DNA of 64,000 nt from Nitrospirota bacterium (GTDB lineage Bacteria > Nitrospirota > UBA9217). Where the stretch lies: positions 1 through 64,000 of the forward strand of contig JAOUEV010000009.1 of the NCBI GenBank assembly GCA_029858565.1, given 5' to 3'. This document shows, in pieces, positions 49,156-52,592 of this stretch (the stretch's first letter is position 1; each line of letters begins with the position of its first letter). Below the pieces are notes generated by a model. It searched no databases, was not told the DNA's origin, and saw only the letters and a program-made list of their open reading frames with translations. A program made the position numbers and the translations under genes.

Positions 49156-50166
49156 ATGAACGATAATAATACCGGTTCCCAGGAAAATGCGTTGGCTGAG
49201 TTGAGTAAGCACACTGGAGCGTTTGTTAAAAAACTGCTGCAGATTGAGCAAAGCATCAATCAAAAAGCTGATGAGTCCGAGATGACTGCTCAGATCGTTG
49301 AAGCGGCCGGTATTATGGAAAAACAGTGTGATGAGTTTGAAAGGGCTGTAGCATATGATAAAGACATAATTAAGAGCGCCCAGGCTCGGTTCAGAGCCGA
49401 TACAGACATCATTTTCCTGAAAAGCTATTTTTTGCTGCGAGCCCGCACGTGGCCGGCAGGGAATGCAGGAGATCACGAAACAATTGAGTCAATATATAGA
49501 AATGCACCACTATCGTCTGGAATCGGACGTATTCTGGATCAGCTTTTCCTGAAATCAACGCTTGCAATGGCCGTAAAAGAGAGAAAGGAAGTCATAAAGC
49601 AATTACTCAAGCGGGAAATAAAAAAAAGAAACGAACCCAAAATGCTCAATGTGGCAAGCGGTTCCTGTCGCGAACTTGTGGAAATAGCGCAAGATATAAA
49701 AACATCCAACACCCATCTCATATGTGTGGACATCAGTTCTCAAGCCCTTGAAGCCGCTTCCATGCGTTTATCATACGCCAACCTCGGGACTGACCAGGTG
49801 CAATTCAGAAAATACAATGCGCTAAAAATGATCAGCTCCGATCGAAACATCAAGGAATTCGGGAAGCAGGATATCATTTACAGCATAGGGCTTTTTGACT
49901 ATCTGAGCGATGACATGTTGGTGCGCCTGTTGAGCGCTTTATATGATTGCCTTGAGCCTGGCGGCGTCCTAATAACATCCTACAAAGACAAGGAACATTA
50001 CAAGTTGTTCGATTATCACTGGCTCACTGATTGGACAAGCTTCTACCAGCGCTCAAAAGAGCACGTGCGTCAGATATATGCGTCAACGAATATTCCAGCA
50101 ACGAATGTTGCCTATGAAAAAATGAATTTGCCGGCTATCTACTTTATTCTCGCGACAAAACCATAA
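49156..50166 (+). CDS. Class I SAM methyltransferase, PhcB-like
   Basis: WPAGNAGDHETIESIY, MLNVASGSCRE, DIIYSIGLFDYLSD, LEPGG; AT-rich. Confidence 0.8.
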   Translation: MNDNNTGSQENALAELSKHTGAFVKKLLQIEQSINQKADESEMTAQIVEAAGIMEKQCDEFERAVAYDKDIIKSAQARFRADTDIIFLKSYFLLRARTWPAGNAGDHETIESIYRNAPLSSGIGRILDQLFLKSTLAMAVKERKEVIKQLLKREIKKRNEPKMLNVASGSCRELVEIAQDIKTSNTHLICVDISSQALEAASMRLSYANLGTDQVQFRKYNALKMISSDRNIKEFGKQDIIYSIGLFDYLSDDMLVRLLSALYDCLEPGGVLITSYKDKEHYKLFDYHWLTDWTSFYQRSKEHVRQIYASTNIPATNVAYEKMNLPAIYFILATKP

Positions 50167-50187
50167 ATTTCAAACGAAAGAACATTG

Positions 50188-52353
50188 ATGATGCAACAAC
50201 TCAATAAAGCCGCTTCCAGAACTCCCCGTGGTCAATACATGCGGGAGCAAATGGAAATTAAATTACAGTATTGGACCGGCAATGTGATGATTATGGGGAT
50301 CATCTTGTTTCCGCTCATATCAATTGCCGACTATTTCCGGACGAAAAGCGAGTTCGCCACGTTCGCGGGGTACAGAGCCGCCGTAACGCTGATATTGATA
50401 CTTACCTACTATCTGAACAAGATCAAAAGAAGTCTTCAATATCAGTATTCGCTTATTATCATTGGCACCATCGCATCGGCGGTTACCATAGAAGCAATGA
50501 TACTTTCCCTGGGTGGCCACCAATCCTCATATTATGCAGGGATGAGTTTGCTGGTGATCGGAGTGATAGGGCTGATTCCCTATGACATATATGTGGCTGT
50601 TCTGATGGCGGTAATCATCTACGCAATATACCTGGTGCCGATCCTCGTGCTGGATCCGATCACGAACAGCGCATTATTTGTGGAAAACAACGTATTCTTG
50701 TTGTCCACCATTGTCATTACATCAACGTGGCGCTATATCTTTCAGCGAATTATGCTGAATGAAATGAGTTTGCAGTACGAGCTCACGGAGGATCGAGATA
50801 AACTCGAACGCGAGGTTCAGCAGAGAACTCAGGACCTGTATCAGTCGGAGCTTTGGCACCGCTCGCTGTTCGAGAATGCGACTGACGGGATTATGGTCCT
50901 CGACAAAAGCGGCATCATTGTGAACGTCAATGCAAAAGCATGCGCAATCTACGGTTTCCCGCAGGAAGCCATGATAGGAACGCAAGTTGCGCTGCTGGCT
51001 GCCGAAGAAAAGGACCAAGTGGCAAATCGCCTTCACAAAATACTTGACGGCGAGACCATGTACTACGAGGCTGAGCACTACCGCCGGGACGGGAAGCGCA
51101 TTGCGGTCGAGATCAGCGCGAAGGCGATCAAACTGGGAAACGAGACCTACATCCAGTCATTCCAGCGCGATGTTACGGAAAAGAAAAAGATCCAGGACCA
51201 TCTGGTCCAGTCCCAGAAGATGGAATCCATCGGCATACTGGCCGGAGGCATTGCCCACGACTTCAACAACGTTCTGACCGCCATCCTCGGCTTTATCGGA
51301 TCGATCATGAAAGAGAACATCCAGAGCGAGAAGATACTGAAACGTCTGCGGGTCATGGAGCGGACCGCTCAGAATGCCTCGCGGATGGTATCACAGCTCC
51401 TGGGTTTCGCGCGGAAGAGCGAGATGAAGTTCGTTCCCCTGAACCTCCGGGACATCATTCTGGACACCTCAAAGCTCCTCGAAGGGTTTATGGAAAAAAC
51501 GGTAAGACTCGACCTGCAGATCGACCGAAATCTGCCGATCATCAAGGGGGATATCGCTCAACTGGAGCAGGTATTGATGAACCTCGTCATGAATGCGCGC
51601 GACGCCATGTCCGGAGGCGGGATTGTGACGATCAAGGCGGAAGCGGTCCGGGCGGGCGCCGGCACTCCGCACATCCCTCCGTATATTCCCGACGGCGAGT
51701 ATGTCGAGCTGACCGTATCCGACACGGGTCGCGGCATCCCCGAGAACATCAAGGACAAGATCTTCGAACCCTTTTTCACGACCAAGGACCGGGGAAAAGG
51801 GACCGGACTCGGACTTTCCATGGTGTACGGCTCCGTGACCGACCACCAAGGGTATATCACGGTCAGAAGCAAGGTAAACAAAGGAACGACATTCACCATC
51901 TACTTCCCCGTATGCGGAGAAGAACTGCCGACAGCGGCGGTGGAGAGCGGTCACCCGGTCCCGGCGAAGCTTGCGGGGAGCGAGACTGTACTGGTCGTGG
52001 ACGATGACGAGAACGTGCTGACCTTTGTCAAGGACACGCTCGAGTCCAACGGCTACCGGGTTCTGGCCACCAGCAGTCCCATGAATGCAATCGATCTGTT
52101 CACCAAGATGCACGAGGAGATCGACCTGGTGATCACCGATGTGATCATGCCGCTCATCGACGGCGGCGAGCTCATGCGGCAGGTCCGGGCGGTCAAGCCG
52201 GATGTCAAGGTGCTCACCATATCGGCCTACCGCGATTTCGGCGACCGTGCGGACGATATTCGCTCAACTCCGTTCCTCCAGAAACCCTTCAACGGCTCCC
52301 ATCTTCTCGCGACGATACGGAATATGCTCGACACCGGAAAAGTATCCGCCTAG
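50188..52353 (+). CDS. Membrane-bound PAS hybrid histidine kinase with PhcS-like N-terminal TM sensor
   Basis: ~6 TMs with SSYYAG; PAS; LAGGIAHDFNN, NLVMNARDAM, FEPFFTTK, GTGLGLS; receiver VDDD..TDVIMP..QKPF. Confidence 0.9.
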   Translation: MMQQLNKAASRTPRGQYMREQMEIKLQYWTGNVMIMGIILFPLISIADYFRTKSEFATFAGYRAAVTLILILTYYLNKIKRSLQYQYSLIIIGTIASAVTIEAMILSLGGHQSSYYAGMSLLVIGVIGLIPYDIYVAVLMAVIIYAIYLVPILVLDPITNSALFVENNVFLLSTIVITSTWRYIFQRIMLNEMSLQYELTEDRDKLEREVQQRTQDLYQSELWHRSLFENATDGIMVLDKSGIIVNVNAKACAIYGFPQEAMIGTQVALLAAEEKDQVANRLHKILDGETMYYEAEHYRRDGKRIAVEISAKAIKLGNETYIQSFQRDVTEKKKIQDHLVQSQKMESIGILAGGIAHDFNNVLTAILGFIGSIMKENIQSEKILKRLRVMERTAQNASRMVSQLLGFARKSEMKFVPLNLRDIILDTSKLLEGFMEKTVRLDLQIDRNLPIIKGDIAQLEQVLMNLVMNARDAMSGGGIVTIKAEAVRAGAGTPHIPPYIPDGEYVELTVSDTGRGIPENIKDKIFEPFFTTKDRGKGTGLGLSMVYGSVTDHQGYITVRSKVNKGTTFTIYFPVCGEELPTAAVESGHPVPAKLAGSETVLVVDDDENVLTFVKDTLESNGYRVLATSSPMNAIDLFTKMHEEIDLVITDVIMPLIDGGELMRQVRAVKPDVKVLTISAYRDFGDRADDIRSTPFLQKPFNGSHLLATIRNMLDTGKVSA

Positions 52354-52576
52354 TCCGCTGTACAACCGCATTCGGAAAAAGATCCGCTGTTCCGGCGACC
52401 ATCAAGCTGCGTGTCTGATCTGCGTCTCCTCTCAGGTAATTTCTGTTTATCATTTCATCAGTTGATTAATAATGTGTCGGCGTGATCACGAACCGGCGAG
52501 TAGAACATCGCGTTCGCAACGCGCGAACTCAGGACAACCCGTTGATACTGCAAGGATACTTCTCCTTGGGTAGCTA

Positions 52577-52592
52577 TGGCATGGCTGTTGCT
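52577..52592 (+). promoter_or_regulatory. sigma54 promoter of nifH
   Basis: TGGCATGGCTGTTGCT, GG-N10-GC. Confidence 0.85.

Follow-up and report, generated by a model that had tools for sequence, protein, structure and literature searches.

The signals of the Phc systems of Ralstonia and Cupriavidus are methyl 3-hydroxypalmitate and methyl 3-hydroxymyristate. In the alpha-hydroxyketone systems CqsA/CqsS and LqsA/LqsS a lipophilic autoinducer is sensed by the six-helix membrane domain of a hybrid kinase. According to passages of PMC10653808 and PMC9197120, PhcB esterifies a fatty acid, and PMC10653808 treats the phc cluster as confined to Betaproteobacteria, its supplement (Table S5, Fig. S5) possibly listing a wider spread; our literature searches returned no publication on Phc-like systems outside the Betaproteobacteria. 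Here we analysed a stretch of 64,000 nucleotides (nt) from a Nitrospirota bacterium (assembly GCA_029858565.1, contig JAOUEV010000009.1, positions 1 to 64,000), referred to below as the window, in which a gene for an S-adenosylmethionine (SAM) dependent methyltransferase is followed by a gene for a hybrid kinase and then by nifH. As judged from the alignments, the two genes are a Nitrospirota form of the Phc maker-receptor pair in which the methyltransferase is short and the kinase is a hybrid one. We consider it somewhat probable that they form a Phc-type lipid-signal module, of a form common in Nitrospirota, which makes and senses a signal of the fatty-acid methyl-ester type.

The reference Phc genomes were reached through the replication protein from the start of the GMI1000 megaplasmid, which led to named Ralstonia and Cupriavidus genomes. 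A profile of the methyltransferase family of the window (alignment A1) had exactly one match in each of these genomes (4/4, E 6e-29 to 6e-23), in open reading frames (ORFs) of 471-500 amino acids (aa); the PhcB ORFs are of 463-464 aa. In the phcBSRQ operon of Ralstonia soli the four genes code for a methyltransferase of 464 aa, a membrane kinase of 447 aa, a receiver-kinase of 371 aa and a receiver protein of 340 aa. BLASTP aligned the methyltransferase of the window to R. soli PhcB with 29% identity over 252 aa (E 1e-21), and hhalign aligned profile A1 to PhcB over 306 columns (99.5%, E 1.9e-22), residues 23-333 of the window protein lying on residues 137-461 of PhcB. These alignments identify the first protein as a class I SAM methyltransferase that shares homology with PhcB along nearly all of its own length.

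The membrane domain of the kinase was 24% identical to that of PhcS over 205 aa, the alignment being collinear with three small gaps (BLASTP, E 4e-11), and the corresponding profile matched PhcS over 174 columns (hhalign 98.6%, E 1.1e-15). Genome-wide searches served as a control for membrane-protein bias. At E<=10 the window membrane domain matched only one ORF in each of the three Burkholderiaceae genomes searched (3/3), always the one directly after the PhcB gene. In the opposite direction, the PhcS membrane domain retrieved this kinase first in the genome of the window (1.9e-8) and a paralogue on another contig second (9.5e-7), while PhcB retrieved this methyltransferase as the sole significant match (2.5e-19; next match 0.49). 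When the two sensors were matched in the register of the hhalign alignment, with an offset of 4, the conserved intramembrane polar residues of the window sensor (D48, Y49, R63, G110, S113, Y115, G118 and P131), which vary little or not at all among the Nitrospirota sensors, corresponded to the invariant D44, Y45, R59, G106, S109, Y111, G114 and P127 of PhcS. This comparison establishes the homology of the six-helix membrane domain with the sensor of PhcS, whose buried polar residues it shares. Since the best matches are reciprocal genome-wide and the eight sensor positions are shared with PhcS, we take both genes to be distant but true relatives of the PhcB-PhcS pair of Ralstonia and Cupriavidus. 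The PhcB/PhcS-like pair that an earlier note on this DNA had proposed from the letters alone was thus borne out by BLASTP, by the profile-profile comparison of both proteins and by the reciprocal best matches.

The three motifs quoted in that note were found in the translations, where they read TWPAGNAGDH, GLFDYLSD and HQSSYYAGM. The Ralstonia counterparts that it gave were near in form and inexact in their letters: for PhcB, described there with a P-G-Y-A-G-D box and GLFDYL, R. soli reads KPLGYAGDYE and AGLFDYISD, and for the S-x-[YF]-Y-A-G motif given for PhcS the reading is ESIYATG in R. soli, ESLYYAG in R. syzygii and SPYYVG in Cupriavidus. Alignment A1 contains the family motifs ARTWPxGYxGDY, ACGSCRE, YNA, GLFDYL and YHW..W, which are present in the window methyltransferase; the window sequence belongs to A1, so that its agreement at every invariant column is by construction. 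At positions that are not invariant it reads GN.GDH and ASGSC.

Class I methyltransferase models of Pfam matched the first protein, among them PF12147 with 40.1 bits (cut-off 21). The AlphaFold2 model (predicted local distance difference test, pLDDT, 90.4) consisted of a helical N-terminal cap and a Rossmann core, and its nearest solved folds were 3ocj and natural-product small-molecule methyltransferases; a sequence search of solved structures with this protein returned generic methyltransferases only. Since the nearest folds are those of small-molecule methyltransferases, the protein was not assigned to the protein or RNA methyltransferases, an assignment named beforehand as one that would speak against the pair. 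The protein carries neither the N-terminal domain of about 135 aa of PhcB nor the PilZ domain found at the N-terminus of many of its relatives. The idea that the N-terminal domain of PhcB is a degenerate PilZ was rejected, as the hhalign alignment of the PilZ-bearing forms with PhcB stops short of the N-termini and Pfam finds no PilZ in PhcB.

Pfam analysis of the kinase identified PAS (residues 226-333), HisKA (352-411), HATPase_c (455-576) and Response_reg (602-711), while no Pfam family was found in residues 1-205. The AlphaFold model of residues 1-211 (pLDDT 92.9) showed a short N-terminal helix followed by six long membrane-type helices, as expected for the sensor of about six transmembrane segments described earlier. 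The folds nearest to this model were the six-helix domains of ImcA and of membrane adenylyl cyclases, with TMq of 0.54-0.66 and weak E values (0.013-0.5). A six-helix membrane domain carried by a hybrid kinase is also the arrangement in CqsS and LqsS; the synthases CqsA and LqsA differ in being pyridoxal phosphate enzymes, the maker of the window being a methyltransferase. In two Cupriavidus genomes the window sensor had no second match at E<=10; Cupriavidus species are said to carry lqs too (PMC10653808). The genome of the window contains a second PhcS-type hybrid kinase (G000:C108, about 7995-10211) of the same architecture, 39-52% identical per module; no methyltransferase gene adjoins it, and its neighbours are era, a DedA/VTT gene and recO.

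A scan of 1.84 billion representatives for relatives of the methyltransferase gave 3417 at E<=0.001, 1204 at E<=1e-10 and 108 at E<=1e-30. The window protein was alone in its 50% identity cluster, the next relative in the representative library being at most 45% identical. The closest relatives (41-52% identity) came mostly from metagenome-assembled genomes titled Nitrospirota or Thermodesulfovibrionales and in some cases Planctomycetota, and several had been labelled by the Joint Genome Institute as 3-hydroxypalmitic acid methyl ester biosynthesis protein (phcB-type KEGG orthology). A tblastn search against plasmids retrieved remote methyltransferases only (22.6-29.3%) and no Ralstonia match.

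Analysis of 80 related methyltransferase loci indicated that the PhcS-type kinase was directly downstream in 23 and 1.1-5.7 kb downstream on the same strand in 17; in 10 loci no such kinase was found over 5.9 kb or more of sequence downstream, and the remaining 30 ended too near the methyltransferase to be judged. Among 24 same-family genomes, 12 carried both genes, one the methyltransferase only, two the sensor only and nine neither, counts that are descriptive only, the genomes being kin. The methyltransferase and sensor-kinase genes travel together in many genomes. A search with an alignment of GC-rich members, aimed at Burkholderiaceae, retrieved loci of Planctomycetota, Rhodothermia and Desulfobacterales; in these 29 loci (including 6 repeats of earlier contigs) no PhcS-type kinase was found with the window sensor at E<=1e-3. 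The window pair is an ordinary member of the methyltransferase-kinase loci of Nitrospirota and Thermodesulfovibrionales, with six-helix sensor, PAS, HisKA, HATPase and REC in a protein of about 720 aa; kinase size (715-729 aa) and gene spacing in the related loci were the same as in the window. It differs from them in having N and H where most methyltransferase relatives have Y, and in being the only one found next to nif.

This linkage bears on the possibility that the two genes are neighbours without a shared task, the methyltransferase tailoring some other small molecule and the kinase responding to some unrelated stimulus by way of its PAS domain or its membrane domain. Such a reading agrees with the many natural-product methyltransferases of varied substrates in the fold search, with a type I polyketide synthase methyltransferase domain found at 29% in the tblastn search against plasmids, and with the genes downstream of the pair, which vary from locus to locus (aminotransferase, GGDEF, radical SAM, HtpG). 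We consider it improbable, in view of the linkage kept in 40/80 loci, of the 12 genomes with both genes and 9 with neither, and of the pairing of the same two families in Burkholderiaceae as maker and receptor.

The genes that stand between methyltransferase and kinase were scanned in three loci. In L014 (6978-11559) two ketosynthase genes and a flavin adenine dinucleotide (FAD) amine-oxidase-like gene were present, in L011 (8251-8688) a FabA-like dehydratase gene lay downstream of the methyltransferase, and in L041 (8745-9605) the intervening stretch contained a gene for a cyclopropane-synthase-like methyltransferase. Ketosynthase, FabA and oxidase genes belong to fatty-acyl chemistry and would suit a methyltransferase with the fatty-acid esterifying activity reported for PhcB. 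The spaced loci as a whole, with their ketosynthase, FabA-like, ketosynthase and FAD amine-oxidase-like genes and the cyclopropane-synthase-like gene in L041, look like a dedicated acyl-chain factory.

If the two genes act as a Phc-type module, the methyltransferase would esterify a fatty acid, hydroxylated or modified in another way, at its carboxyl group to yield a diffusible methyl ester, which could partition into the membrane and bind inside the six-helix bundle of the sensor. Binding of the ester would switch the PAS-HisKA-HATPase core, and the phosphoryl group would pass to the receiver of the kinase itself and from there to an Hpt protein or response regulator whose gene lies elsewhere. 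The window shares with phcBSRQ, besides the homology of maker and sensor and the common D, Y, R, G, S, Y, G and P positions, the order of maker then sensor, tightly spaced on one strand; in R. soli the PhcB stop and the PhcS start abut. The differences are that the kinase of the window is longer and carries a PAS domain and its own receiver, PhcS being a non-hybrid kinase, that the receiver is fused to the kinase instead of being encoded by a following phcR or phcQ, and that the host is an anaerobic member of the Nitrospirota and not a betaproteobacterium, with a putative product.

Several observations weigh against a Phc-type module. The identities to PhcB (29%) and PhcS (24%) are low, the methyltransferase aligns only to residues 137-461 of PhcB, and its N and H replace the Y residues of the family GY.GDY box. 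No PhcR- or PhcQ-like gene follows the kinase, the next gene being nifH, and the receiver of the kinase has generic similarity to that of PhcR (32% over 87 aa). Pairwise distances of methyltransferase and sensor correlated with a Pearson coefficient of 0.62, against 0.51-0.68 for other domain pairs (20 pairs); being no better than these, the correlation lends no support to co-evolution of maker and sensor. PhcS-type kinases occur without an adjoining methyltransferase, both in this genome and in the 2/24 relatives with the sensor only, which fits the sensing of something more general. In L003 (2830-5687) and L014 (2403-5332) a block of NfeD, SPFH (stomatin) and DedA (VTT) genes directly precedes the methyltransferase gene and hints at membrane housekeeping. 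Finally, the product is a putative one, and its exit from the cell is presumed.

Some of these observations would also agree with a cell-autonomous membrane-lipid circuit, in which a fatty acid or lipid of the membrane is the substrate of the methyltransferase and the kinase monitors the membrane of its own cell, in the manner of a thermosensor or fluidity sensor, with no signal passing between cells. The NfeD-SPFH-DedA block, which may tie the system to membrane microdomains, the fatty-acid-modifying genes in the same operons, the kinases that lack a methyltransferase partner and the N-terminal PilZ domain of many relatives, which suggests internal control by c-di-GMP, all fit such a circuit. 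Against it, PhcB and PhcS, the only homologues that have been studied, act on a signal that is released, the one making and the other sensing it (PMC10653808); methyl esterification, as general chemistry would have it, should make a fatty acid more volatile and less membrane-anchored; and the block of low GC content at third codon positions (GC3) spans maker and sensor, resembling signalling specificity cassettes. We regard the circuit as unlikely, though deserving some weight, and prefer the lipid-signal module.

GC content was 0.42-0.44 at positions 49000-50499 against 0.58-0.68 immediately upstream, in agreement with the AT-rich methyltransferase noticed earlier. GC3 was 0.49 in the methyltransferase gene and, in the kinase gene, 0.59 through codon 286 and 0.77 beyond it (likelihood ratio of the change point 27.7, a value reached by 0/1000 permutations); the long ORFs of the genome have a mean GC3 of 0.69 with a standard deviation of 0.105. 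Low GC3 of methyltransferase and sensor was also seen in seven other pair loci (L048, L005, L024, L057, L007, L046 and L067), which gives 8/21 with the window. The low GC3 suggests an imported cassette of signal maker plus sensor, and the low-GC3 block, with the methyltransferase and the kinase's sensor part, probably arrived, or was swapped, as one piece. The arrangement resembles the pherotype cassettes comQXP (Bacillus) and agrBDC (staphylococci) in that a block of its own composition spans the signal-making gene and the sensor part of the kinase gene, the rest of the kinase looking native; those cassettes differ in being peptide systems, and the distance correlations gave no support to a cassette in the window.

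The kinase gene was also considered as a chimera, on account of the GC3 step and of a contig break at the H-box. In the one public run that holds the stretch, and is probably its source, the sequence is divided between contigs corresponding to 47500-51268 and 51241-53819, and no single contig of that run covers the whole stretch. The two contigs overlap by 28 nt only, at the conserved H-box, on a 32-mer with a depth of 46.5 against 11.6-14.1. If the join inside the kinase gene were false, the adjacency to nifH would be an assembly artefact. The joining 32-mer occurs once in this genome, depths on either side are similar (14.1 and 11.6), and the GC3 change point lies 65 codons ahead of the contig break. 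In a comparison with the 12 loci of top membrane-domain score, all four modules of the kinase matched methyltransferase-linked kinases best (membrane domain, PAS and kinase core 46-54%, receiver 40-49%), on both halves of the gene, and total length and architecture agree. Because all four modules match in this way the gene is coherent and not a chimera, and, with the 32-mer unique in the genome, we take the gene and the nifH adjacency to be real, an artefact being very unlikely. Within the same-family genomes the 3' part of the kinase was closest to one genome set (56%) and the 5' part to another (49%).

Downstream of the pair, nifH (TIGR01287, 467 bits, cut-off 394), nifD (793), nifK (805), nifE (580) and nifN (439) were identified with NCBIfam, the order being nifH, nifD, nifK, fused nifEN and nifB. 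The sigma54 -24/-12 pattern had two matches in the window against 0.09 expected, one of them ahead of nifH. The kinase stop is 223 nt from this promoter, close to the approximately 220 bp noted earlier, and from this position the earlier note had drawn the possibility that the pair gates nitrogen fixation. According to such a scheme the pair would measure cell density or a community lipid signal and gate transcription of nifHDK. The promoter is on the same strand as the kinase gene, and the terminator scan found no terminator-like site on the + strand of the 223-nt spacer, which is unique to this genome and offers a place for enhancer sites; moreover, in other bacteria quorum sensing has been linked to nitrogen fixation (PMC8198075). 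Inspection of the spacer by eye only found no exact NifA-type TGT-N10-ACA site, and its RNA fold was no more stable than that of shuffled sequences (z +1.7).

Comparison with other genomes argues against such gating. The genes nifH, nifD and nifK were found in 0/118 fetched methyltransferase loci of other genomes (about 105 distinct contigs, 13 repeats), and in none of the 18 loci where a full-length sensor kinase is followed by 1 kb or more of sequence did nif lie downstream. Of 17 same-family genomes, 8 carried nifH; the pair was present in 0/6 nifH upstream regions of relatives, and in 7 relatives with nifH there was no PhcS-type kinase on the nifH contig. In the same-genus genome G005 the region upstream of nifH (L217, G005:C197:38500-48000) instead contained genes for an NtrC-type activator, an MCP, CheW, an unrelated 749-aa periplasmic-sensor kinase and a small secreted protein. 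The kinase of the window pair lacks a DNA-binding output, and none of the 26 sigma54 activators or 8 Hpt proteins of the genome is encoded on this contig. We hold gating of nifHDK by the pair to be improbable: the pair is not a dedicated nif regulator, its link to nif is still positional only, as had been said at the outset, and the related genomes compared contain no conserved association of the pair with nif.

BLASTN similarity to the nifH loci of relatives started at the promoter (52574-52577) in 4/6 and at the nifH start (52628-52629) in 2/6. On the left side, synteny with relatives stopped after the SLT transglycosylase gene, and the genes that neighbour SLT in relatives are on other contigs of this genome. 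Because nif is absent from the related loci, similarity starts at the promoter and left synteny ends at SLT, the adjacency of pair and nifH is, as read from these comparisons, a private local rearrangement, seen in this genome only. The upstream context of the nif cluster differed in every relative examined. We give little credence to the further scenario in which a Phc-type cassette of maker plus sensor, exchangeable among Nitrospirota like a pherotype module, landed before nifH and replaced its enhancer region, so that in this anaerobe a methyl-ester lipid signal released by its own population or by neighbouring cells would time the making of the costly nitrogenase.

The Phc maker-receptor pair is now supported by firm sequence evidence in Nitrospirota, where it is widespread, the methyltransferase gene being present in 13/24 same-family genomes. 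If the proposed chemistry is true, uncultured anaerobes without described cell-to-cell signalling would have a lipid-ester language, and operons that encode ketosynthases of their own would hint at signals of new structure. For nitrogen fixation the pair is of little import unless the one-off adjacency to nifH proves functional.

The coordinates of the features are given in the table below. The full ORF of the methyltransferase is 49150-50166, the protein being counted from its ATG. The kinase is of 721 aa from ATG 50188 or of 722 aa from TTG 50185, so that the gap between the two genes on the + strand is 18-21 nt (21 nt with the ATG), which confirmed the tight linkage of methyltransferase and hybrid kinase described before. 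The sigma70-like match in the leader is weak evidence of a promoter, because the scan gave 6 sites in the region against 3.9 expected.

Table. Positions in the window of the methyltransferase-kinase pair, its parts and its flanks
Feature	Position	Strand	Basis or remark
AT-rich intergenic leader of the pair	48928..49155	+	GC 0.38-0.41
Sigma70-like promoter match TTTACA-18-TATACT	49091-49120	+	Promoter scan
Ribosome-binding site AGAGGA ahead of the methyltransferase	49143-49148	+	Sequence
PhcB-like SAM-dependent methyltransferase (predicted), short form, 336 aa, from ATG	49156..50166	+	Pfam, homologues, hhalign, AlphaFold2 model
PhcS-type six-helix membrane sensor domain (predicted), kinase aa 1-205	50188..50802	+	BLASTP, hhalign, structure model
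Cytoplasmic part of the hybrid kinase	50803..52353	+	Pfam
PAS	about 50860-51183	+	Counted from TTG 50185
HisKA	51238-51417	+	Counted from TTG 50185
HATPase_c	51547-51912	+	Counted from TTG 50185
Receiver	51988-52317	+	Counted from TTG 50185
Low-GC3 block: leader, methyltransferase, membrane sensor, first half of PAS	48928..51043	+	GC3 change point
Spacer from kinase stop to nifH promoter, 223 nt	52354..52576	+	Without counterpart in relatives
Sigma54-type -24/-12 promoter of nifH, TGGCAT-N5-TTGCT	52577-52592	+	TGGCATGGCTGTTGCT; pattern scan, kept in nifH loci of relatives
nifH, neighbouring gene	52629..53468	+	NCBIfam

Ahead of the AT-rich block, a GC-rich ORF of 104 aa (48613-48927) overlaps the end of the SLT gene; its product is coiled-coil-like and without Pfam match, and it is the last native-looking gene before the block. 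The second sigma54-type match, TGGCATAAGCGTTGCA at 19689-19704, is upstream of an ORF (19823-20491) without NCBIfam match. The nif cluster is compact (52629-63819). The gap between nifH and nifD is only 202 nt and the ORF list has no gene there, so that no room is left for nifI1 and nifI2. The fused nifEN codes for 894 aa and is followed by a short stand-alone nifB of 296 aa, which scored 336.6 bits, just below the cut-off of 343.65, and then by a gene for a ModA-like binding protein.

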